DNA from: Escherichia phage vb_EcoM_bov11CS3
Reading direction: 5' to 3' (one strand)
Sequence record: MT884009.2
Length of the DNA: 64,000 nt
The first letter of the stretch is position 1; each line of letters opens with the position of its first letter. Positions 23,601 through 41,218 of this stretch are shown here, piece after piece. The notes beneath the pieces were generated by a model. The model searched no databases, was not told the DNA's origin, and was given only the letters and a program-made list of their open reading frames with translations. The position numbers were made by a program, and so were the translations under genes.

Positions 23601-25679
23601 TTAAAAAGGCGTTTCATCATCCTCAAAACCAGGGACCGGGTCAGAGGATGGATCATCGTACTGGAGGTCTTCCTGCGTGTCAACAGGCTTAACAGTAGGA
23701 GTTACAACCTTATCAGCCACAACCTTGCCCATAGGTGTTTCTACAACTGCATGCTCCTGATCCTCAAACATAGCCTGAGGTCTCCAAACAACCTCCCCAC
23801 CTTCTCCGTCTGTAAACATTTGCATTTCTTTGTCCCAGTACCAATTACTGGCATCATGGAACTTACCTGTGTGCGGGTCCATAACCAAAGTGTCAGCAAT
23901 ACCTAAAGTTTTTGCTGGACGGTTTTTAAGACCTACCAGACGGACACGTCCACGAGAACGATCCACCATTTCTTCGGCCTCGACACCTATGACTACCCAA
24001 CTCAACTGTTCAAGCCCCGCCGATCCTCGCAAATTCTCTTTTCGCACAGGATACCAGAAAGGTAACGGGTTACCATCCTTGTCCTTAGGAGGCACAATCT
24101 CTGTACGTTTGAGGTGAGCGATCACCAAGATAAACACGTTAAACTGCTTACAAAACGCAGCCAGCTGAGTCATAGCCATGTCCAGTTCTTTTCGCTCATC
24201 CTTAACATTAAGCCCTGAAATTACCATGGACAGGTGATCCAGCACAATATAACGGCAATGGTACAGGCAAACCATTTGCTTAAGCTTGGTAATCAACTCG
24301 TCCACCGGAATAGATCCGAAATGTTTGAACACTTTGATTTTTCCAGCTTTTGCCCATGATTGGTGAATCTCTGCGTGTTCTTGATCAGTTAAAAACTGGC
24401 TAGGATCTTCAACAAACTCTTTAACATCAAACCCTAACTGGTTTGCATACAAGGAGTTAATTGCTTCCTCTGGGTCCTCCTCAAGATGGATCATACATAG
24501 ACGATCATCCTCTTCATAGTCATCAGCCTTCGGGCATGTCGGGTCCATTAGGTATCTTGCAATACAATGTTCCAGTTTTTTAGCTACAGTTGTTTTACCG
24601 CCCCCTGATGGCCCTGTAAGCATTACGAGTGTCCCTTTGTGCAAGCCTTTTAGCATTTTTTGCAGTTTTGGGAACTCTGCGCTGATATCTACCCCGTTGG
24701 AAGTCTTTTTCCGCAAAGACTCGATAGAGAAGTCTTCTAAGTCCGACACAGCATCAGGCACATATTTAACAGGATGCCGGAACATGTTGACAATATCTTC
24801 CAGCTTTTTAGCCTTCAGCATGTCTCGGATATCTTTTACACCGTCAGGGTCGTTTACTTCACCAGGGTATTCTACGTGGTAAACGTTATCAGCCATCAAA
24901 AATGCTGCGATATTGTGCGTGGCCTCAACACCTTTAATGACGTGTTTTTGCTTCTCTACCTCGTTAGCTGCATCGTTATCCATTGCCAGCACAACTGTTC
25001 CATAGCTACGGATAAACTTCTCATTGTTTGCAAAAGTATCTACTGCGTTTGCACATCCACAGTTAATTCCAACAAAAGGTAGGCAGGGTTTTCCTGCCAG
25101 ATCACCACCGTTGATAACTGCGTCGATCCCGTCCTGGACCTCTTTAGCCCACTGCTTCACCTTTGCCGGGGCTTTAGCGTTGGTGAGAATCCCTTTTACT
25201 TGTATCTGATATGCAGCCTGCCATGCTGCAATAACATCACCTTCTCCCTCACAAACGTTAATCTGCTTACGGTTGTTGGAAGATGCACACAGCTTTTGAC
25301 CAAACATCTGGGAGTTGGCCTTTACGATGCCAACAACGGAGAAATGGCCCCTTTGCTCTTTAGGAATAGTCCAGTCACGCTTTTTGAAACCAGACAGATT
25401 TCCGTAGCGGTCGTAATATGGGAAATATGTTGCAGTGACTGTCACACCGTCTTCTTGGGACAATGCTGATCGCACACCAAAATATTGTGCAGCCATCAGA
25501 CCGATATTTTGTTGTGGGACAGGGACAATTTTAGTATTTTCTAAAACAGTCTCTACAGTTTCAACTTCTTTTTCATCACGATAGTCTCGTTTCACACTTC
25601 CCCCACTTTTATACTTAGTTGCTTTCGGGTTTGGCTCACCGAAACGGTTGTATGCAGATGCCATAAATTTACTTCCCAT
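23601..25679 (-). CDS. Primase-helicase (T7 gp4-like; TOPRIM plus DnaB-type helicase), 692 aa
   Basis: TOPRIM-like VCEGEGD and AMDNDAAN; Walker A LTGPSGGGKTT; ATG with SD aaggag. Confidence 0.9.
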   Translation of the reverse strand: MGSKFMASAYNRFGEPNPKATKYKSGGSVKRDYRDEKEVETVETVLENTKIVPVPQQNIGLMAAQYFGVRSALSQEDGVTVTATYFPYYDRYGNLSGFKKRDWTIPKEQRGHFSVVGIVKANSQMFGQKLCASSNNRKQINVCEGEGDVIAAWQAAYQIQVKGILTNAKAPAKVKQWAKEVQDGIDAVINGGDLAGKPCLPFVGINCGCANAVDTFANNEKFIRSYGTVVLAMDNDAANEVEKQKHVIKGVEATHNIAAFLMADNVYHVEYPGEVNDPDGVKDIRDMLKAKKLEDIVNMFRHPVKYVPDAVSDLEDFSIESLRKKTSNGVDISAEFPKLQKMLKGLHKGTLVMLTGPSGGGKTTVAKKLEHCIARYLMDPTCPKADDYEEDDRLCMIHLEEDPEEAINSLYANQLGFDVKEFVEDPSQFLTDQEHAEIHQSWAKAGKIKVFKHFGSIPVDELITKLKQMVCLYHCRYIVLDHLSMVISGLNVKDERKELDMAMTQLAAFCKQFNVFILVIAHLKRTEIVPPKDKDGNPLPFWYPVRKENLRGSAGLEQLSWVVIGVEAEEMVDRSRGRVRLVGLKNRPAKTLGIADTLVMDPHTGKFHDASNWYWDKEMQMFTDGEGGEVVWRPQAMFEDQEHAVVETPMGKVVADKVVTPTVKPVDTQEDLQYDDPSSDPVPGFEDDETPF

Positions 25680-26433
25680 TAATTCTGCTCCTTACTACAG
25701 GCTCGTTTGCTAAGAATACGGCTTTTGCCCAGCCACGTGGTGTGAGGCTTCGAATCATCTTCGTTCTTGCACTCTTTCCACCCAGCTTGGCGTGTTGCAT
25801 GGAATACCCGCTAACCACGTCAACTATTTGCGGGACAGGTTTTGTGGCCGGGATTATAAATCCATTACCTATCCAGCCGCAAGTTATTTTTGGATAGGCA
25901 TCACGTGGAGCTATAAATTCAGGAAACCATGGGTTTACATCATCTTCCGGTAAATACCCGCCATAATCCGAAGGGTGAAAACGGTAATCAGGTTTGCGCC
26001 ACAGTGTGGACATAACACCCACAGGGTTCTCTACATGCCACGGGCAATCGTAAATCTCTCCCAGCTCTTCCGCAACCCGAGCATCCTTTACAGCATTAAT
26101 TTGGATCATGGGGTCCTTAGCCAGCTTTTTCTTAAAATGTGCAGCACCTGATACCGCTAAATGCGTGCACGGAGGAAATGCAAGAATAAAGTCTGGAGCC
26201 GGATACATGCAAAAAGTTTCCTGTGGGAACCACGGGTCAATCCAATAGTCCACATAGTGAATGTTGGGATGATCGGTGATCACCTCTGCATAACTGCCGT
26301 GATCAGCGCCTTCTGCATTAAAGCACAGGCACAGGTACCCAGCTTTTGCCCAGTCAATGACTGCACCACCAGACCCGTCAAATAGACTCCACACAACACC
26401 TTTGTGGTAGTGCTCTTTGTAGATAAATTTCAA
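25669..26433 (-). CDS. DNA cytosine-C5 methyltransferase-like protein (about 254 aa), probable TTG start
   Basis: Motif I LFDGSGG, motif IV-like FPPCTH (PCQ-like), motif VI-like VENPVG; TTG with SD aggaga; the track GTG lies inside the terminator stem. Confidence 0.5.
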   Translation of the reverse strand: MKFIYKEHYHKGVVWSLFDGSGGAVIDWAKAGYLCLCFNAEGADHGSYAEVITDHPNIHYVDYWIDPWFPQETFCMYPAPDFILAFPPCTHLAVSGAAHFKKKLAKDPMIQINAVKDARVAEELGEIYDCPWHVENPVGVMSTLWRKPDYRFHPSDYGGYLPEDDVNPWFPEFIAPRDAYPKITCGWIGNGFIIPATKPVPQIVDVVSGYSMQHAKLGGKSARTKMIRSLTPRGWAKAVFLANEPVVRSRINGK

Positions 26434-27375: not shown

Positions 27376-27719
27376 CAGAAACCTCCCACTTCTTCGGCAA
27401 ATGCAGCTGCTGTCGTCGCTGCATCAAGATAGGACTCTAGTTCACGGGCTGCACGTTTGTAAATTGAGTGGCGCATATCGTTTGGCAGTTTGTGGAAGTC
27501 CACCTCTTCACCGTTGTGGTAAACATGCACATCAGTGATCTGTCTAAATCCATAATAGTCAACATCAGAATCACGACACTCCGGGTCTGGCAACTGGACA
27601 ACTGCCTGAGCTTCCACAGTGAACATATCGTCAAGTTCGAAATCGATTTCAAAAGTGTATGGTTTATAACGTTTCATCATTTGATTGTACTCTTTATTGA
27701 TCAGACTTATCTTTCGCAA
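27375..27719 (-). CDS. hypothetical protein (114 aa by track; TTG start, alternative ATG at 27680)
   Basis: Track ORF; start uncertain. Confidence 0.45.
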   Translation of the reverse strand: MRKISLINKEYNQMMKRYKPYTFEIDFELDDMFTVEAQAVVQLPDPECRDSDVDYYGFRQITDVHVYHNGEEVDFHKLPNDMRHSIYKRAARELESYLDAATTAAAFAEEVGGF

Positions 27720-29019
27720 CTAAGGCCGGGGCAAGTTTGTAATAACGGAAGCCACCACCACCTTGCCAGTTTACAGACTTAGAAATACCACCTTGATCTT
27801 CGCCATCGATCACTTTTTCCAAGCGCGGAATAATATGGGTATGACAATGATCACCTAGCTCGATTGAGATCCAGCGTCTTTTCATCTTATGAGCTACAGC
27901 AGCAGTAGTTCCCGAACCACCGAATGAATCCAATACCAAATCGCCTTCTCGCGTACACATTTCGAAAATCCGCTTCAAAAGCGCTTCTGGTTTTTTCCCA
28001 TTTTTGAAACTAACGCCGCCTTCATTTGCTATTCCATTCCAACTAATGTCTGTCCAAACATCAGTTATTAGTTCCGCAGGTTGCATCTCACCGTCAATTT
28101 CCAAAAGCCTATTGGAGTAAAAGACCATTTGCCTACCATTTGCGATATAAAATCCTTCAACATCCTCATTTGGATGTACATAAACCTTATCCCTATCTTT
28201 CTTTGACTTCTCGATAGTTTCTTTTCTCTTTATTTTAGCACCACCACCAATTGCAACAGATTGAAATACACGTTCTGCATTATCAATTGCGAATTGTGCT
28301 AATTCATCATCGAATGTGTCAGGCAGTTTTTTCTTGGCTTCTTTTGCATCCTTATAGCCATTGGCCTTTGCAAACGCATCGGCAATACCGCACCACGTCC
28401 AATTTTTATAATGGTCATCCGGGTTTAATAGGTATTTGTTATATCCTGTATCGTACCCTTTAGGTATATAGATTTTGTTAAGCGGTTTCTGGGTGCGATC
28501 TTTTGCATATACAAGCAAAAAGTTTGCTGTGGAGAAAACTGTGGCTCCTGTTGCCTTAAATCCTGAAGGGGAATTTGTGGTCATCGATATGGTATTTAAC
28601 TGATTTGCACGACCAAAAATCTCGTCCATCAAAACTTTTAAATACGCCATTTCGCAATCATCTAAGTGAACGAATATTACCCCATCATCACTTAGAAGAT
28701 TACGAATTATTTCTAACCTATCCCTCATTAAGCCCAGCCAAATGGAATGCTCCAGGCTATCATCGTAGTGCTCAAAAGCCCTCCCGGTATTGAATGGCGG
28801 GTCTATGTAAACACACTTCACTTTGCCTGCATACTCTTGCTCTAGCGCCTTCAATGCTAATAAGTTATCTCCAAAAATCAGTTTATTATCAAAAATATCG
28901 TTTTCTGTCACTTTCTGGCTGCGGTAAGACTTGCTAGAATCTTCTAATAAAATGTGCGGCTCTAACTTTTTGCGCTCGTTTTTACCTATCCAGGTAAGTT
29001 CTAATTTGGTTTTGCTCAT
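27694..29019 (-). CDS. DNA methyltransferase, beta-class N6-adenine/N4-cytosine type (Mod-like), 441 aa
   Basis: Motif IV VYIDPPFNTG precedes motif I DSFGGSGTT; ATG with SD taaggagag. Confidence 0.85.
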   Translation of the reverse strand: MSKTKLELTWIGKNERKKLEPHILLEDSSKSYRSQKVTENDIFDNKLIFGDNLLALKALEQEYAGKVKCVYIDPPFNTGRAFEHYDDSLEHSIWLGLMRDRLEIIRNLLSDDGVIFVHLDDCEMAYLKVLMDEIFGRANQLNTISMTTNSPSGFKATGATVFSTANFLLVYAKDRTQKPLNKIYIPKGYDTGYNKYLLNPDDHYKNWTWCGIADAFAKANGYKDAKEAKKKLPDTFDDELAQFAIDNAERVFQSVAIGGGAKIKRKETIEKSKKDRDKVYVHPNEDVEGFYIANGRQMVFYSNRLLEIDGEMQPAELITDVWTDISWNGIANEGGVSFKNGKKPEALLKRIFEMCTREGDLVLDSFGGSGTTAAVAHKMKRRWISIELGDHCHTHIIPRLEKVIDGEDQGGISKSVNWQGGGGFRYYKLAPALVAKDKSDQ

Positions 29020-29080: not shown

Positions 29081-29422
29081 CTACTCAAGGTCTTCAGAGT
29101 CAAGCTCAAAAAGAATCAAACTGTGCATGCCTGCAGATAGATTAACACACCCTGCAACAATAAGGGTCTGATAGTAAGGTTCAGCACCCTCGATGTCTTC
29201 GTTAAAATCCACAACAAGGTAGTCACCTTTGTTAAAGGTGTATTTGTCCGATGTAAACGCAAAACCTGCCCAGTCCCCTACTGCAGGGTCTTTATCGGTC
29301 ACCTTTGTTAACAGTAGATCTTTTTCACGGGATCTTTTAGTAAAATCGTGAATCACAACATCCTTCTCTTCAGGAGTTGGATTGCCACACACGTAGTTAA
29401 CTATATTTCTCCACAAACTCAT
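29081..29422 (-). CDS. hypothetical protein (113 aa)
   Basis: ATG start; overlapping stop/start with the helicase. Confidence 0.5.
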   Translation of the reverse strand: MSLWRNIVNYVCGNPTPEEKDVVIHDFTKRSREKDLLLTKVTDKDPAVGDWAGFAFTSDKYTFNKGDYLVVDFNEDIEGAEPYYQTLIVAGCVNLSAGMHSLILFELDSEDLE

Positions 29423-30789
29423 ACGTCCCCCTCTTCGGCTCTGGTTTCAAAATCTTTCCTGACAATTTTGTCTAAGTCAGGGAATGTTGTATTGTAAAAC
29501 TCTACGACTCGCGGGTCAACAATAATGTCAACTTCTCTTAGTGGACGCAACAAGTTTATTCCTTGTATTGTCTTAACCCTACTCAAAGCAACATACGTCA
29601 TCCCAGGAGAGAAAGCTCCGTTCTTTCCAAGGTCCAGGTTGTAACAATCTAGCGTAAGTCCTTGACTTTTATGAGATGTTACGGCATACCCAGATTTCAG
29701 AGGAAGTTGCCTGTATGACCCAATCACTACCCTCTCTATAAACTTCTCCATCTTCCTTTCTGCAATGTTGTATCTCTGAGATGGCTTATACTCGTTATTC
29801 TCCCACAACCTTTGCTCTATGTCAACCTGTGTTCCATCTTCAAGCTCTACCACCACTGCCTTGTTCTTAAATTTAACAATTGTGGCACGTGTTCCGTTAA
29901 CATAATAAGGTACTTTGTGCGTCGGGTCAACATCGTTGGCGGTTATCATAACTTTCATGCCAATTTTCAACTTCATCTCCTGCTCAACTGGCAGGGTGGA
30001 GGGAAACTTACCCTTCATTTCACCAGTGTATACCTTCTCTGGGGCGTTGATGGCATCATAGAACCTTCTGTTCACTTCCTCTGCTTGTTTGTTGGTGGCG
30101 CAAATTGTGAGAGCATCTGTTGGTACACCACCTTTGTAACAGCGAGCATTAAGTTCTGCTACAACCTCTTTTATGCGACGACCCTCACGAACACAGTTGA
30201 GCATTGTGGCAAATCGAATAGACTCCTGTCGGAACTGGTCTATTAGGGCTATGTTGTGAAGGTCAAGCTCTTTCCAAGATTCGGTATAGCAACATAGGTC
30301 TGTGTGGTAGAAGTTGAAGTAGGCCTCCTTCTCCATAGAAGAGACAACAGGAGGTGCCTGGTAAAAATCGCCAAACAATATGACCTGTATGCCTCCGAAA
30401 GGTTTGTCATTTTTTCGAAGGAAGCGGAGTTTCCTATCCATCTCTATAAACTTATCAGCACGGATCATAGAGATTTCATCGATAATTAGGATGGTAAATG
30501 CCTTGCTTTTCAAAGGCTTTGCTGTTTTTGCCCTTATTGCAGTCCAGTCAGACTCCATGCTCACACCTGCTGCAAGATCGAAGGTTCGGTGTGCTGTTGC
30601 TCCATTAACGTTTAAAGCGGCTACCCCTGTCGGGGCAACCGTTATGCAAGAGTCTCCATACATTGACTGGATCATGTTGATGAGGTACGTCTTCCCACAA
30701 CCTGCGGGTCCTGAAACGAAGACATTCTCACCGCTCATGATTGCAACGAGGGCAGCATCTGTGCCTACATCATACTGCCCTTTTTCCAT
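29419..30789 (-). CDS. SF1B DNA helicase (Dda/PIF1/RecD-like), 456 aa
   Basis: Walker A VSGPAGCGKTYL and motif Ia APTGVAA; ATG with SD gaggagg. Confidence 0.85.
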   Translation of the reverse strand: MEKGQYDVGTDAALVAIMSGENVFVSGPAGCGKTYLINMIQSMYGDSCITVAPTGVAALNVNGATAHRTFDLAAGVSMESDWTAIRAKTAKPLKSKAFTILIIDEISMIRADKFIEMDRKLRFLRKNDKPFGGIQVILFGDFYQAPPVVSSMEKEAYFNFYHTDLCCYTESWKELDLHNIALIDQFRQESIRFATMLNCVREGRRIKEVVAELNARCYKGGVPTDALTICATNKQAEEVNRRFYDAINAPEKVYTGEMKGKFPSTLPVEQEMKLKIGMKVMITANDVDPTHKVPYYVNGTRATIVKFKNKAVVVELEDGTQVDIEQRLWENNEYKPSQRYNIAERKMEKFIERVVIGSYRQLPLKSGYAVTSHKSQGLTLDCYNLDLGKNGAFSPGMTYVALSRVKTIQGINLLRPLREVDIIVDPRVVEFYNTTFPDLDKIVRKDFETRAEEGDV

Positions 30790-31994
30790 TACGCCTCCTC
30801 GTAAAGAATGTCGATAGTGTTGCCGTCTCGGTCAACCACGTATTCAATCGGGTCTCCGTCCTTGCGTGCTTCCGGAGCTACCACAATCTCATAGCGGCAT
30901 GCACGGCACTTAGCGCTATTGTGTTGGTATGGCACACTAACCACATCTGCAGGGTCAACCATAACAGTCATTACAGTGCCGTAGCTCTTTGCATACTCTT
31001 TGCTGGCGCAGTGTAAGCCATAGGAGCACGCAGCTTCAGGATCATCCTCTACAAAGTTACGAGGCATGGATACAAAAGCACCTTGGTATTGTGGGACTTT
31101 ACCACTGTGCCAATCCACCCACTTGCTGCCGTTAAACTGAACCCCTTTGTAGCAAATGATTCGACCATCTTCTGCAATCTGGATATCGTTGGCCTGCATA
31201 AAATCGTAGAGCATGTTTACAGATTTTGCAGAAGGATTGCGTAGCAGGCGAACGAGGAATTTCACATAGCGGTCATCCAGTGTTCCGTCTGCATAGTCTT
31301 TCTCAATTTTCTTTGCAATGGTGGATCGCATCTCTACACCGTAGTAGTAGAGCTTACCATCTTTCATGATCAGGTTGTCTGCAAGTGTGGTGAACTCATT
31401 CTTGCGTTCCAGCCAGACAAGGATTTCACCAATTGCCTCATCATATTCCTGAACAGAGATATGGTCGAAGACTTTCTGGTAAACTTCCTCACTTTCGCTG
31501 CGGCGAATTTCAAAAATGCCTTCGTTGCAGGTGATCTGGAGGAGTTCCCCACAAATAACTACTAAAGGCTCGATGCTTCGAGTCTGTTGCTGAGACACAC
31601 TGCTCACCACCTCCAGCACCGGGTCTTTGACTTCTACTAAAGGTTCTTCTGACTTGATTGCCACCCCAGTGAACCCCACACCGTGAACAACACACAGTGG
31701 GTATACCACGCCCCAACGTTTAACGGAACCTTCGCCTAAGTCTAAGATCATGGCGTACTTACCATTATCTTCCAGCCCATATCGAAATAGACGGGCCTCT
31801 TCACGGGTTTCAAAATCCTCACGGGTGTAGCAGACGCTGTCACGGTCAGGATCGAACAACTCTGGGGCACCAACTGCCAGTGTCCAGGTTGTGTCGCCTT
31901 TCTCAATGGCACATGTGAAACCCTTCTTCTCAAGTTCTGCACGGCGGTCGCGTGCTTCTTTACGAGTTTTGAAGTGTTCGTAGATGAAAATCAT
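30789..31994 (-). CDS. hypothetical protein with tandem N-terminal repeats (about 401 aa; track start is TTG at 32030)
   Basis: ATG with SD aaggaga; two similar N-terminal segments of about 35 aa. Confidence 0.5.
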   Translation of the reverse strand: MIFIYEHFKTRKEARDRRAELEKKGFTCAIEKGDTTWTLAVGAPELFDPDRDSVCYTREDFETREEARLFRYGLEDNGKYAMILDLGEGSVKRWGVVYPLCVVHGVGFTGVAIKSEEPLVEVKDPVLEVVSSVSQQQTRSIEPLVVICGELLQITCNEGIFEIRRSESEEVYQKVFDHISVQEYDEAIGEILVWLERKNEFTTLADNLIMKDGKLYYYGVEMRSTIAKKIEKDYADGTLDDRYVKFLVRLLRNPSAKSVNMLYDFMQANDIQIAEDGRIICYKGVQFNGSKWVDWHSGKVPQYQGAFVSMPRNFVEDDPEAACSYGLHCASKEYAKSYGTVMTVMVDPADVVSVPYQHNSAKCRACRYEIVVAPEARKDGDPIEYVVDRDGNTIDILYEEA

Positions 31995-32004
31995 AACTGT
32001 CTCC

Positions 32005-33987
32005 TTATTTGGTGTTATTCTTTGTATCAATCAGCTCACGGTATTCAATCATAGCAGGGGTGTCCCAATATTTCAAGCCTACATGCTTCAAAAGTGGGTA
32101 TTTCTTTTCCAATCTTGCAATATAGGCCTTCCCGCATTTAACTCGGTTGGCGATTAAGATTTTGGCACGATGATTTAGCTCACTGTGCTTCCACGTGGTG
32201 TTACCTTCCCACTTGTGGAAATGTGGCCGATAATTTCCAAAATCTTGCATGGGAATAATTTTCCCTAATTGTCTATACAGGCTGTCATAAGAAGTCTCAT
32301 TTGCTGCACGGGTCAGTAAGAATTTCCAAGCATCCTCTTTCAACAGGTGCTCCACATTCTTCTCTGTAACATACTGGCAATCAGGATCAGTCCAAAGCAG
32401 ACGAGATTCAGATACCAGATACAGATCTTCACCTTCAGGAATCTGAAGTGCCGCACGTACACGGTCATAATCTTGCTGGTAGATGTTACTCATCTGCCCC
32501 AGCCAACAACTTCCACGTTGGATATCACCCTCATAAGGGATGCAGTGTTTAATCTTCCGGAACTCTGCCTTAGTAATACGCTCACGGCGGAAGTAACCAT
32601 CCTTCTCAAGTTTTTTAACCCAATAGCCTGGCTCATAATGAGTTTTTGTTTCACCTTTCTTCGCAGGTCGGCGAGGGAGCTCTGATAACAATTTGATCGT
32701 ATCTGCAAAGAACGGGTGGTGTGCTGCCTCTTTAAACTCTTTCACCAGATCAGTGTTCCGGCAATAGAAAACGTTGCGTCCGGTGATCTCGCTTAAGTAG
32801 TTACACTTATTTCGGTTATATTTGCCGTCTCCGTCGTTAAATACTAAATAAACTCCCCGTAAGAATTCTACCTTTCCGTAACAAGCGTAACCTATGCGGC
32901 CTTTATTTAAGCCGCCAGCGAAGATCTCACAGTCCCCCAAATTTCCTAGGCCTGTCTCTTCCCATCGTTCCCACATAAAATTCTTACCGAAGATGTGCCC
33001 GAACACTCCACTGTTCTTCATCATCTCGCGTGCTTCTGAGGATGTTTTTGCTGTCTCCAATTCCGCAACAACTTCTGCCCCACGTAAACGGATACCCTCT
33101 TTGACAAAAGCCTCCAGGCGATCCTGGAATCCACCGTCGTCATGGCCCTCTATGGTCCATTCGCGCCCAGGGTTAATATTGCAATCCCCAATAGGAATCT
33201 CTACACAGATTGCAGGGTAGTCTGTCAATGTTTCCAGGAATTTAGATCGGTAAGGTTGGTGACCCATTACCACGCGACTCTCGTCAGAGCTGGTATAACC
33301 TTTCAGGATAGTCATTTTCCAACCATCTTTCTCGTAGCGATACTGCGCCTCAACCTTGTCACCTTCCAGCATCTTACTGGTCATAGGGTCGGTAACGGTA
33401 AACGGAAACTTTGCATAGCGTAGGCATGACGCAATAGCAGTGCGATATTTCAGAACATGCTCTTTCTTAACATGGAACTGAACTTTTACCCCGTTGTGCT
33501 CTTCAGTCTTCCGCTCGCGGATCTTGGTAACGTTTGGGATACCCTGATCCAAGAACAATAGATATGTGCTTTCAACACCGTTGTGCACACTAATCACATC
33601 GAAAGTGTCCACCATGCTGAACGGGGCCTTTGAACCTACACCTTTATTACCTACCAGAGCGTTGCTGTTGCGCTTGGTTGACTCCCCGAGGTTCATGAAA
33701 GTGTTGCGGACCATCTCTTCTGACATACCCAATCCAACGTCCTGCACAAAGAAGTATGGTTCAAGGTCTGTAGGGGAGTGAATGATGATCGGTACATCAC
33801 CCCGTCCAGACTCAACATGGGAGTCCACAGCATTGAAGATTGGTTCACGGCAGCTTGCCAGCACCTTATCTTCGTAAATCCCTTTAATGATTAGCCCAAA
33901 AGTCTCTTTGTTCAGAGAAATTGAGCCCCTGGTGACCTCCATATTCCCGGTTAGTACTGCTTTAGTTTCATTACTGTTTACAATCAT
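32005..33987 (-). CDS. GHKL-superfamily ATPase (Hsp90/MutL/MORC-like fold) of unknown function, 660 aa
   Basis: Bergerat motifs EPIFNAVDS, VQDVGLGM...NLGESTK, GNKGVGSKAPF; ATG with SD aaggag. Confidence 0.6.
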   Translation of the reverse strand: MIVNSNETKAVLTGNMEVTRGSISLNKETFGLIIKGIYEDKVLASCREPIFNAVDSHVESGRGDVPIIIHSPTDLEPYFFVQDVGLGMSEEMVRNTFMNLGESTKRNSNALVGNKGVGSKAPFSMVDTFDVISVHNGVESTYLLFLDQGIPNVTKIRERKTEEHNGVKVQFHVKKEHVLKYRTAIASCLRYAKFPFTVTDPMTSKMLEGDKVEAQYRYEKDGWKMTILKGYTSSDESRVVMGHQPYRSKFLETLTDYPAICVEIPIGDCNINPGREWTIEGHDDGGFQDRLEAFVKEGIRLRGAEVVAELETAKTSSEAREMMKNSGVFGHIFGKNFMWERWEETGLGNLGDCEIFAGGLNKGRIGYACYGKVEFLRGVYLVFNDGDGKYNRNKCNYLSEITGRNVFYCRNTDLVKEFKEAAHHPFFADTIKLLSELPRRPAKKGETKTHYEPGYWVKKLEKDGYFRRERITKAEFRKIKHCIPYEGDIQRGSCWLGQMSNIYQQDYDRVRAALQIPEGEDLYLVSESRLLWTDPDCQYVTEKNVEHLLKEDAWKFLLTRAANETSYDSLYRQLGKIIPMQDFGNYRPHFHKWEGNTTWKHSELNHRAKILIANRVKCGKAYIARLEKKYPLLKHVGLKYWDTPAMIEYRELIDTKNNTK

Positions 33988-34484
33988 TTATTGCGCTCCT
34001 TGTAGTAGATATGACTCCCGAATTGAGCTGTCCTCTGCATCTTTTTTGCCCATTTCGGTCGTACTTTGGTTGTATGGTAGTGTGTTGCTCCACCTGTTAT
34101 GTCCATAGCCATGTATGCAACATGGTTGTTATTATAGACCTTTAGAAGCATCTTTGCAAGACTTTTAGCGTGATCCCATGAATCTTTTTCTGTCACCTTA
34201 AAAGTTTTGCCGTGGTTTGTCCACGAAAACTGGTTAGGTTGGTAGACAATCTTTCTTATAGTGTCTGGGTATTTGGGGTGAGATTTCCTGTTTAGTGTGG
34301 CAAACCCTGATGCCAGCATACCCATCGTGCCATCCCCTCTAGCCTCCCTGTAGATATTGCATGCCAGAATGTTTTCCTTAGTATCTGAGGGCTTGCAAGT
34401 ATGATATACTTTTTGTTTTGGTGCTGCAACAACAGGCAGCGATAAAAATGCGCTCAAAATAATAGCAAAGATCTTAATTTTCAC
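33984..34484 (-). CDS. Secreted cell-wall hydrolase (SleB/CwlJ-like), candidate endolysin, 166 aa, GTG start
   Basis: Signal peptide VKIKIFAIILSAFLSLPVVAAP; NIYREARGDG resembles the SleB EARGE motif. Confidence 0.55.
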   Translation of the reverse strand: MKIKIFAIILSAFLSLPVVAAPKQKVYHTCKPSDTKENILACNIYREARGDGTMGMLASGFATLNRKSHPKYPDTIRKIVYQPNQFSWTNHGKTFKVTEKDSWDHAKSLAKMLLKVYNNNHVAYMAMDITGGATHYHTTKVRPKWAKKMQRTAQFGSHIYYKERNK

Positions 34485-34493
34485 AATAACTCC

Positions 34494-34520
34494 AAATAGA
34501 AAATCCCCGCCGAAGCGGGG
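34494..34520 (-). terminator. Rho-independent terminator; hairpin ccccgccgaagcgggg (copy 1 of 2)
   Basis: 6-bp stem with 4-nt loop followed on the minus strand by a U-rich tract; identical hairpin at 60949-60964. Confidence 0.6.
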
Positions 34521-34923: not shown

Positions 34924-36108
34924 TTAAGCTTTAGCTAAAATGGCGCTAAACTCTTCACCAAACTCTTTTACAATCTTCATCAGGTTTGGGTACGCTTTGA
35001 TCAGTTGAGCAACGATCTTGTCACGCCCTTTACCGATAAGCAAGGCATTTCCTAAGGCATTAGGTTTCATCATCGCCATAAAGACTGAGAATACAAAATC
35101 TCGGTTCTCGTCCTTGAAGTTTTCCCAAAGGAAATCGAGGAAGTTTGCCACGCAGCTGACAAGATCTTCATCTGAGATACTTGCATTTTCCATCATATTA
35201 CGAATAGCGATACAACCTTCAGATCCAAGAATCCACAAGATGTCTGGCTGCTTAGGACCTACGTATTCTTTGCAACCCCCTGCCATAATCCGACCGATTT
35301 CCGGTAAATTGCGTTTCTTGGTGTGGTAGGTCCAGATCTCTACCGCTGCAGTGTGACCAATAGCACCTTGCAGAAGAACACGGGCCATAGCGTCAGAAAT
35401 AATACCGCTGTCAAAATCGTGCAGGATATCAGATGCAGCAACCCAAGATCGCGGTGTGGCAAAAGATGGGCAATTAATCTCAGCCATAGCCTCATAATTA
35501 TCAATAGCTGACGGAACTCTTTTCAGATACCCAATTACAGAGGAGTGCACTCCATTAAGGAATGCGTAGTCCTCAATAAACACCTCTGCATTGCTTGTAA
35601 CTTCTACAATGATAAAACGGTTAGCCAGAGGGGCTTCAAGCGCCGAAAGAACCGCACCATCTGTAGAACGGTTACCTGCAGCTACAAAAACAGAGCCCTT
35701 AGGGAATGCATAGGTGCCGCACTTGTGGTCGAGCATAATTTGCATTGCAACCTTTTGCAGGTAATTATCTGCATGAGTAAGCTCATCCAGAAAGATAATT
35801 CCGCTCCAGTCCGGATCTGCAGGCCAGAATTCTGGAATTGCAAACACTGTACGTGTAGTTCCATCCGCTTCTACAGGGATAGGTAGCCCAGATAAGTCGG
35901 CAGGATCTTTATCTGACAGTCGCACGTCAACCAGGTTGTCATCTCGCTCACCGAACATATTATCGGCGATCTGCTTCATCACCTGGCTCTTCCCCACGCC
36001 CATTGGTCCTAAAATCAGGACAGATCGGTTATGACGTTGGGCAAACTGAATGATAGCTGGCAACTCACGGACAGTGATTTGACCACTTTCAAATACGTTT
36101 CTTGACAT
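34924..36108 (-). CDS. MoxR-like AAA+ ATPase, 394 aa
   Basis: Walker A VLILGPMGVGKSQ and Walker B IIFLDE; ATG start. Confidence 0.8.
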   Translation of the reverse strand: MSRNVFESGQITVRELPAIIQFAQRHNRSVLILGPMGVGKSQVMKQIADNMFGERDDNLVDVRLSDKDPADLSGLPIPVEADGTTRTVFAIPEFWPADPDWSGIIFLDELTHADNYLQKVAMQIMLDHKCGTYAFPKGSVFVAAGNRSTDGAVLSALEAPLANRFIIVEVTSNAEVFIEDYAFLNGVHSSVIGYLKRVPSAIDNYEAMAEINCPSFATPRSWVAASDILHDFDSGIISDAMARVLLQGAIGHTAAVEIWTYHTKKRNLPEIGRIMAGGCKEYVGPKQPDILWILGSEGCIAIRNMMENASISDEDLVSCVANFLDFLWENFKDENRDFVFSVFMAMMKPNALGNALLIGKGRDKIVAQLIKAYPNLMKIVKEFGEEFSAILAKA

Positions 36109-38644: not shown

Positions 38645-38715
38645 ACTATATCGTAGATTTATAGTAAAGTCAACACGTTTTTGAGGTTGACATCTGTCGA
38701 GGCACTTGATAAGAT
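38645..38715. promoter_or_regulatory. Divergent promoter region (minus TTGACT-17-TATAGT at 38645-38673; plus TTGACA-17-TAAGAT at 38687-38715)
   Basis: Back-to-back sigma70-like hexamers at the strand switch. Confidence 0.45.
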
Positions 38716-39757: not shown

Positions 39758-41218
39758 ATGGATAGCAGAAGTTCAGAAATCATTGCCTCACAAAAAGATG
39801 ATGCCCTGAGAATGTTGCAGGCTGCACGTATGTATCTCCTTGAAAAGCTGCCGTTTTACGGCACACTGCTGTCAGGGTTGCAGTTCGTAGAAAACCACAC
39901 ATGGTGCTCCACCATGGCAACCGACCATAAACGCATCTACTACAGCCCCGAATTCATTATGGGATTGGCAGATGAGCGCAAAACAATTCTTAAAGCATCT
40001 CTGACTGACGAGCAGTTTGAAATGGCTGAGGTTTTCTATTCCCCTAAATCTGTGAAAGAGGTGGCCTTTCTTCTGTCACATGAGGTGGGGCATATTATCT
40101 GTGATCACCTAGTCCGTGGTAAAAGCTTTGAGCCAGAGCTGTTCAATATTGCTTGTGATCACGTTATCAACACAGGCCTTGTGGTGGACTTTAGCAAGCC
40201 TCCTTGTGTTTTCTTCCCGAAGGGGAAAAGCACTACGTTCGTAAAAGGTAAGCCTTTTGGTTTCTTAGCCAGCTGCTACTGCGACATGAGGTTTCATGGA
40301 TGGATTGCTGAGAACGTCTATGCAGTTCTTGATAAGCAAAGAGATCAGAATAACGGTAAAAGTAAGAGTGGTAAAGGTGATAACTCTCAGGGGGATAAGC
40401 GACAAACCGATGATCACATGAGTGGGAACGGTGGCACCAGTGATGATCTCGGAAAGGCTATGGGGTATGATCAGCCACAACCTGTAATCAGCCAATCTGA
40501 TAAAGATCAGGCCATGCAAGACTCTGGTGACATGCTGGAAGCAGCAATGCAAGCTTCTGGAGGTAGTTGCCCTGAGGCGGTGCGTGAGTTTGTCAAGAAC
40601 AGAGGTAAGCCTGTAATCAACTATATAGACATCATTAAGCAACGTATGTTGTCTAAACGAAAGGCTGAACTAACCTACAGAAAGCCTGGTCGCCGATCTG
40701 GATCTTTGACCAGCACAATGCGAAAAGTTGGGGCTATAAACAAGAACCAGCACGTTATTGTTCCTGGTCGTAATCCGGAAAACACTATAGATATTGTGGT
40801 GGCTTTAGACGTTTCTGGCTCGATCTCTCAAAGAACTTTAAAGAAAATGTTCAATGAGATCACCGGATTGTGCAATCTGTATAAAGAGTTTAAGGTTACG
40901 ATGTTCTGTTGGTCAACCGAGGTTGGAGAGGTCAAAGTATACACTCGCGGCAACATAGACGAGATGATCAACTATGAGGTCCACTCAACATGGGGCACAA
41001 CAGCTGCTTGCGTGTTCGAGTATCTGGATGCCAATATACCGAATGCAAAAGATGTCATCGTCCTGACCGACCTATACTTTGAGCATAACTTTGAACAAAA
41101 GGCTGTTGACAACAAGTGGAAAAAGTACGATACTTTATGGGTTCTCACCGAGGGGTATAATAAAAATTATATCCCGAGCTTTGGGAAAACTGTGGAATTA
41201 ATCGAATACGCCAAGTAA
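39758..41218 (+). CDS. VWA-domain protein with N-terminal HExxH metallopeptidase-like domain (about 486 aa)
   Basis: HEVGHIICDH zinc-binding-like motif; MIDAS-like VVALDVSGSIS; ATG with SD ggag; the track TTG start is upstream. Confidence 0.75.
   Translation: MDSRSSEIIASQKDDALRMLQAARMYLLEKLPFYGTLLSGLQFVENHTWCSTMATDHKRIYYSPEFIMGLADERKTILKASLTDEQFEMAEVFYSPKSVKEVAFLLSHEVGHIICDHLVRGKSFEPELFNIACDHVINTGLVVDFSKPPCVFFPKGKSTTFVKGKPFGFLASCYCDMRFHGWIAENVYAVLDKQRDQNNGKSKSGKGDNSQGDKRQTDDHMSGNGGTSDDLGKAMGYDQPQPVISQSDKDQAMQDSGDMLEAAMQASGGSCPEAVREFVKNRGKPVINYIDIIKQRMLSKRKAELTYRKPGRRSGSLTSTMRKVGAINKNQHVIVPGRNPENTIDIVVALDVSGSISQRTLKKMFNEITGLCNLYKEFKVTMFCWSTEVGEVKVYTRGNIDEMINYEVHSTWGTTAACVFEYLDANIPNAKDVIVLTDLYFEHNFEQKAVDNKWKKYDTLWVLTEGYNKNYIPSFGKTVELIEYAK

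Follow-up and report, generated by a model that had tools for sequence, protein, structure and literature searches.

The rIIA gene of an rV5-like Vequintavirus and its partner rIIB, very probably a conditional counter-defence pair against RexAB

The stretch of DNA analysed here (the window) comprises 64,000 nucleotides of Escherichia phage vb_EcoM_bov11CS3 (MT884009.2), and the subject of the analysis is a gene of its minus strand encoding a protein of 660 amino acids. It is very probable that this gene is rIIA of a Vequintavirus, an rV5-like myovirus, that it is followed by the gene of its partner, rIIB, and that the two constitute a conditional counter-defence pair directed against RexAB. 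In phage T4, rIIA and rIIB are the classic genes required for growth on λ lysogens, where they counter abortive infection by RexAB, which depolarises the membrane and aborts the infection. The rIIA gene found here is not a new one: GenBank names it, its domain organisation (a GHKL ATPase with a variable C-terminus) has been published, and an orthologue with 98% identity has been functionally tested. The two genes are located as follows.

32005..33987, minus strand: rIIA coding sequence, 660 amino acids and a stop codon, with an ATG start, as given in the list of open reading frames; GenBank QNR53154.1, 'rIIA lysis inhibitor'.
30789..31994, minus strand: rIIB coding sequence, 401 amino acids; match to PHROG 609 with E = 1.4e-61; GenBank QNR53153.1; 98% identical to EdH4_00062.

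The window is 100% identical, with equal coordinates, to the first 64 kb of Escherichia phage vb_EcoM_bov22_2 (MT884010.2), which is classified as Vequintavirinae, Vequintavirus slur16, and in whose GenBank record positions 32005-33987 are labelled 'rIIA lysis inhibitor' and positions 30789-31994 'rIIB lysis inhibitor'. The rIIA locus is common to 118 phage records at an identity of at least 90%. Residues 1-657 of the window protein match positions 1-723 of the 725 positions of PHROG 612 (RIIA) with E = 8e-124, and RIIA of T4 (NP_049616.1, 725 amino acids) also matches this profile over its full length (1-722 against 1-724, E = 9e-250). The search for a full-length match to HtpG or to a topoisomerase subunit gave none, and the full-length match found is that to rIIA. 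The initial annotation, made without database searches, had recognised neither rIIA nor the neighbouring rIIB, both already named in GenBank, and had considered the C-terminal 400 residues unplaceable, a region which the PHROG 612 match includes. As was found by the tblastn search, rIIA-like N-termini are present in 2874 phage records, in 186 of which the match spans at least 80% of the protein.

The RIIA of the window is 65 residues shorter than that of T4. In the BLASTP alignment the two proteins are 28% identical across residues 1-198 (E = 3e-21), and the hhalign comparison of the Vequintavirus-type family profile with the T4 sequence extends over columns 1-336 (probability 99.3, E = 3e-20), which gives a homologous N-terminal GHL module of about 335 residues and pairs the invariant GREW of the window family with SREA of T4. 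The gene rIIB lies immediately downstream of rIIA in T4, as it does here, and in both phages the setting is an early-gene one, amid genes of DNA metabolism. Phage EdH4 (Vequintavirus murica, MK327930.1) is much closer. It represents a different species of the same genus, and its genes are in the same order as those of the window between the DNA polymerase gene and the divergent promoter region. EdH4_00063 and the window RIIA are identical at 646 of 660 positions (98%, with 14 substitutions), and EdH4_00062 and the window RIIB at 391 of 401.

The ATG of rIIB is situated 10 nucleotides past the rIIA stop codon, in the same orientation, and is preceded by a GGAG ribosome-binding site. With T4 RIIB the rIIB product shares 37% identity over 204 residues (E = 4e-39), and the BLASTP alignment is confined to residues 172-371 of the window protein, leaving an N-terminal extension of about 170 residues that is missing from T4 RIIB. 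The extension contains a duplicated unit (residues 5-25 and 58-78) with the motif E/D-x-F-x-T-R-x-E-A-R, which scored 44 compared to 20.6 +/- 4.4 in shuffled sequences. Natural fusions of the two proteins exist, such as the 'RIIA-RIIB' protein of phage RB43 (BFVD Q56C47, 1049 amino acids), and in the profile PHROG 609, which has 1055 positions, the rIIA N-terminus matches the beginning and the rIIB C-terminus the end. These fusions make it probable that RIIA functions as part of a complex with RIIB.

Besides, the N-terminal extension of RIIB shows a sub-threshold match to the Pfam SPOR domain (E = 0.0014, 19.3 bits compared to a cutoff of 21 bits). A SPOR-like peptidoglycan-binding repeat would, if true, be intriguing beside a gene for a cell-wall hydrolase; it is unproven. 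One borderline hydrophobic stretch was also noted in RIIB (residues 95-113, hydropathy 1.69) and was rejected as a membrane helix, as it looks more like buried beta structure.

The N-terminal part of RIIA contains the following features.

33418..33909, minus strand: Bergerat-fold (GHKL) ATP-binding domain, residues 27-190.
33823..33846, minus strand: motif I (N box) EPIFNAVD, E48-x3-N52-x2-D55, residues invariant in the alignment.
33727..33741, minus strand: motif II (G1 box) DVGLG, D83-x-G85-x-G87, residues invariant in the alignment.
33634..33651, minus strand: motif III (G2 box, end of the ATP lid) GNKGVG, G113-x2-G116-x-G118, residues invariant in the alignment.
33133..33417, minus strand: transducer-like second domain of the GHL module, residues 191-285, with Y246 and R275-E276 (NPGREW).

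All nine residues of the Bergerat motifs are invariant among 25 aligned relatives, the most distant of which is 19% identical, and so are S103-T104-K105 of the ATP lid, preceding motif III, G166, Y246 and R275-E276. The Pfam model HATPase_c_3 matches residues 50-147 (E = 1.8e-8, 34.9 bits with a cutoff of 25 bits). The presence of all three motifs and the assignment to the GHKL fold, proposed initially from the letters of the sequence, are thereby borne out. It is probable that RIIA is an active ATPase, since the residues corresponding to the general base (Glu48), the magnesium ligand (Asn52) and the adenine-binding aspartate (Asp83) are among the invariant ones. In the structural model the ATP lid (residues ~97-118) has a low predicted local distance difference test score (pLDDT). 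The comparison of the model with solved folds gave the following matches.

TRAP1/Hsp90: score 18.0, 308 residues aligned.
ParE, 43 kDa fragment: score 17.3, 278 residues aligned.
MORC2: score 17.0, 263 residues aligned.
Phage T6 topoisomerase II ATPase: score 16.9, 274 residues aligned.
MutL N-terminal domain: score 16.5, 253 residues aligned.
SMCHD1: score 15.9, 262 residues aligned.

With 250-308 residues aligned, the matches take in two domains and not one, namely the Bergerat fold and the transducer-like domain. The modelled N-terminal ~285 residues thus form the complete two-domain module of dimerising GHL ATPases. Hsp90 nominally ranks first, with no clear lead over MORC, ParE and MutL. 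A sequence search of the PDB found no solved rIIA, the best matches (E ~0.1) being topoisomerase 3-beta, over a short stretch at chance level, and TRAP1. All the ATP-binding motifs of the dimerising GHL ATPases (Hsp90/TRAP1, MORC2/3, the MutL N-terminal domain, ParE/GyrB, type II topoisomerase) are present in RIIA, but the sequence identity is just 9-16%, and their C-terminal functional domains, which are Toprim, the endonuclease/dimerisation part of MutL, the middle and C-terminal parts of Hsp90 and the CW and coiled-coil parts of MORC, are absent. The likeness is one of fold and of a probable ATPase cycle, not of family membership.

The rest of the protein has a different character.

32008..33132, minus strand: rIIA-specific C-terminal region, residues 286-660.

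These 375 residues are confidently modelled and are without a solved structural relative in the PDB. The fragment taken by itself matches PHROG 612 with E = 1.3e-19, the profile being one that may contain rV5-like members. With T4 RIIA this half of the protein is unalignable both in pairwise comparison and by profile-to-sequence, and the link is made by the family profile and the predicted structure. A search with the T4 protein for diverse relatives listed 120 matches, all of them 98-100% identical T4-like sequences that were useless for building a C-terminal profile; the family profile was compared with the single T4 rIIA sequence as a substitute for a profile-profile test. Foldseek matched the C-terminal model to rIIA models of Aeromonas phage 44RR2.8t (E = 7e-8), the RB43 RIIA-RIIB fusion (E = 2e-7), Klebsiella phage Marfa (E = 3e-7) and KVP40 (E = 1.6e-6), as well as Pseudomonas phage pf16 and Streptomyces phage Bmoc. 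The probability of these matches is ~1.0 and their template modelling (TM) scores are low (0.2-0.36), as expected for flexible multi-domain regions. The C-terminus is likely, not proven, to be related to that of T4-type rIIA.

The C-terminal ~375 residues evolve faster than the N-terminus. In comparison with relatives that are ~39% identical overall, identity is ~54% over residues 1-190, 45% over residues 191-285 and 30% over residues 286-660, and 12 of the 14 positions at which the protein differs from its EdH4 counterpart are in the C-terminal 375 residues (Fisher p = 0.03). High variability of this region of rIIA has been described (2021, PMC7824862). Such a concentration of divergence is what would be expected of the specificity-determining part of a counter-defence protein, and it is probably the variable C-terminus that makes the protein specific for its partner or target.

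Evidence of function comes from T4 and from EdH4. Transposon insertions in rIIA or rIIB of T4 were depleted solely when RexAB was present (bioRxiv 10.1101/2025.11.20.689424). Adler et al. 2025 (PMC11879866) targeted rIIA or rIIB by CRISPRi-ART knockdown in five phages, the Vequintavirus EdH4 among them; the knockdowns were without effect on Rex-free cells and reduced plating in the presence of λ RexAB. With guides directed at 'EdH4_00063 (rIIA)', the titre of EdH4 on rexAB cells decreased from 5e10 to 5e7 (~1000-fold). On cells without rexAB the titre was 3-4e11 with the rIIA_1 guide and 1.5-2e11 with the negative control, that is, there was no drop (PMC11879866). The Rex-evasion phenotype of T4 is therefore found likewise in the 98%-identical orthologue of the window RIIA, and a counter-defence role thus has experimental support in an essentially identical protein.

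The initial annotation had suggested a DNA-transaction or anti-defence role. The EdH4 orthologue speaks for the anti-defence part of this proposal; the DNA-transaction part was drawn from the neighbouring genes and has no direct support. Host-range tests on restriction-proficient strains had been recommended as well. No pointer to restriction-modification was found, and the documented target is RexAB abortive infection, so that such tests would not reveal the phenotype, for which a host that expresses RexAB is needed.

Several points weigh against the interpretation of the window gene as an rIIA acting against RexAB. The evidence for the Rex phenotype is from knockdown in EdH4, a relative of the window phage, and as rIIA lies in an operon, its knockdown might also affect rIIB through polarity. 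The similarity to T4 rIIA ends at about residue 200 in pairwise alignment and at about residue 336 by profile, and the tie of the C-terminus to T4-type rIIA rests on PHROG 612, possibly with rV5-like members in it, and on Foldseek matches with low TM-scores. Association of T4 RIIA and RIIB with the cell membrane has been reported, and database names include 'membrane integrity protector'. No transmembrane segments are predicted in RIIA (the best 19-residue hydropathy window has a value of 0.93), and membrane association must therefore be peripheral or take place via a partner.

How RIIA and RIIB block Rex has been stated to be unclear, in a publication which also describes RIIB of phage T6 as a trigger of bacterial gasdermin/CARD defence systems (bioRxiv 10.1101/2023.05.28.542683). 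No structural or biochemical study of RIIA or RIIB turned up in the literature search, which returned almost exclusively papers on Fc-gamma receptors. The following course of events may be proposed. RIIA and RIIB would be dispensable on naive hosts and required for plating on cells with λ RexAB. By analogy with GHL ATPases, the binding of ATP would close the lid of RIIA (residues ~97-118) and bring the N-terminal domains together as a dimer; R275/E276, in the second domain, are candidates for the gamma-phosphate sensor. RIIA would act with RIIB as a complex, and the variable C-terminus would set the specificity for the partner or target.

A more specific version of this scheme can be put forward as a speculation that we consider improbable. 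It supposes that RIIA-RIIB is an ATP-driven dimeric clamp which sequesters either the RexA sensor or the phage DNA-protein intermediates by which abortive infection of the Rex type is set off, and that the fast-evolving C-terminus chooses which defence systems are neutralised. There is room for a clamp of this kind because the N-terminal module is as close to the DNA-clamping GHL ATPases (MORC, MutL, topoisomerase II/VI-B) as it is to Hsp90, and because the C-terminal 375 residues are apparently an rIIA-only fold without a solved relative. A structure of RIIA-RIIB obtained with the compact Vequintavirus pair of 660 and 401 residues could settle the 70-year-old rII question. The rII system is one of the founding systems of molecular genetics, and the biochemical mechanism of RIIA and RIIB is still a question for the whole field, to which this locus adds nothing unique. 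The small additions made here are a complete two-domain GHL module with a candidate phosphate sensor, a C-terminus without a solved relative, and divergence concentrated in that C-terminus.

The surroundings of the two rII genes bear on the alternative explanations. The neighbouring features are listed below.

33984..34484, minus strand: gene of a SleB/CwlJ-type cell-wall hydrolase; Pfam Hydrolase_2 match with E = 2.1e-19; PHROG 938 (endolysin).
34505..34520, minus strand: terminator-like hairpin upstream of the hydrolase gene, a pattern match from a consensus scan; the equivalent site of EdH4 is annotated as a terminator.
29419-30789: PIF1/Dda-like helicase, by Pfam and PHROG.
27694-29019: one of two DNA methyltransferases, by Pfam, PHROG and GenBank annotation.
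25669-26433: the other DNA methyltransferase, by Pfam, PHROG and GenBank annotation.

All members of the context described earlier were located, namely the Dda-like helicase, the two methyltransferases and the 401-residue protein with duplicated N-terminal repeats, and the overlap of the gene with the stop codon of the endolysin gene was confirmed: the TGA of the hydrolase gene and the ATG of rIIA share the four-base sequence ATGA (33984-33987), with an AAGGAG ribosome-binding site for rIIA. The hydrolase gene and rIIA are probably translationally coupled, as the sequence suggests, which is not the case for T4 rIIA. The putative terminator probably marks the 5' boundary of a unit including the genes of the hydrolase, rIIA, rIIB, the helicase and a methyltransferase.

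One alternative assigns RIIA to the replication module as an enzyme of DNA transactions, comparable to MutL, MORC or topoisomerase VI-B and working with the Dda-like helicase and the methyltransferases. It fits with the co-transcription of rIIA with the PIF1/Dda-like helicase and a DNA methyltransferase, with the presence of DNA-acting GHL ATPases (ParE, MORC2/3, MutL, SMCHD1 and the phage T6 topoisomerase II) among the closest solved folds, with the wording 'putative DNA-binding rIIA protein' in the record of one relative, and with the view of Iyer et al. 2021 (PMC7824862) that RIIB is a possible transcription factor. However, knockdown of the orthologue had no effect on plating when Rex was absent, which means that the protein is not required for replication. 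The rII genes of T4 are also located amid early DNA-metabolism genes (the topoisomerase genes 60 and 39, and denB), yet they are not replication factors, and the gene context is thus uninformative in this respect. It seems that a DNA-transaction enzyme is very unlikely here.

Least credible of all, and close to negligible, is the idea that RIIA is an Hsp90/HtpG-like chaperone or, literally, a lysis-timing factor acting with the coupled hydrolase: the ATG of rIIA and the stop of a SleB-type hydrolase gene do overlap, database names do read 'lysis inhibitor' and T4 rII mutants do cause rapid lysis on E. coli B, but the NCBIfam HSP90 model scores 18 bits on RIIA compared to a cutoff of 455, Hsp90 is not clearly nearer to it than MORC, ParE or MutL, and the phenotype found for the orthologue is Rex evasion, with plating on Rex-free cells unimpaired. 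The opinion expressed at the outset that the protein is not a chaperone is in line with this score and with the lack of a full-length Hsp90/HtpG match.

Other identities were considered and rejected. Membership in the Hsp90/HtpG, topoisomerase subunit, MutL or MORC families was dismissed, as the likeness is at the level of fold, concerns the N-terminal ~300 residues alone and goes with the absence of the defining C-terminal domains; the Pfam search of RIIA found no Toprim, DNA_gyraseB, gyrase B C-terminal, DNA_mis_repair, MutL_C or Hsp90 domain. A defence-system protein was dismissed too, the PADLOC matches being noise limited to the GHKL region (TmtA, E = 0.0049, and a type II restriction enzyme model, E = 0.0077, ~12.7 bits each).

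Apart from the conclusion that the window carries the rIIA-rIIB pair, several minor observations were made on the locus. The rIIA gene contains a single A6 homopolymer (window ~32611-32616, nucleotides 1372-1377 of the gene), and rIIB is without runs of six or more. For T4 rIIA, an A6 run has been reported to work as a contingency locus whose hypermutability turns the gene on and off (bioRxiv 10.1101/2025.10.21.683753). Sixteen unannotated 'Campylobacter phage' records, with Campylobacter jejuni given as the host (they include MG065655.1, MG065654.1, MG065666.1 and MG065646.1), are 96-97% identical to E. coli Vequintavirus genomes across 30789-34484. It looks as if this host label is doubtful or E. 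coli phages were carried over in the samples.

Together with replication genes, the hydrolase gene appears to be part of an early or middle transcription unit and not of a late lysis cassette; the SleB/CwlJ-type hydrolase is a candidate for the true endolysin of the phage. The promoter scan of the window gave 22 sites compared to 22.5 in shuffled sequences, and no promoter is claimed. Back-to-back promoter-like sites, each with 10 of 12 matches, were observed on the minus strand at 38673-38645 and on the plus strand at 38687-38715, and gene orientation and guanine-cytosine (GC) skew both flip at 38645-38715. This sequence pattern is suggestive of a divergent early control region at 38645-38715. 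The strand switch at ~38.7 kb separates the gene of a MoxR-like AAA ATPase (34924-36108, minus strand, PHROG 1297) from the nearby gene (39758-41218, plus strand) of a protein that combines DUF2201_N, a putative metallopeptidase domain, with a VWA-like DUF2201 domain and is called 'anti-sigma factor' in related phages. Together they would be a MoxR/VWA-type pair in a phage.

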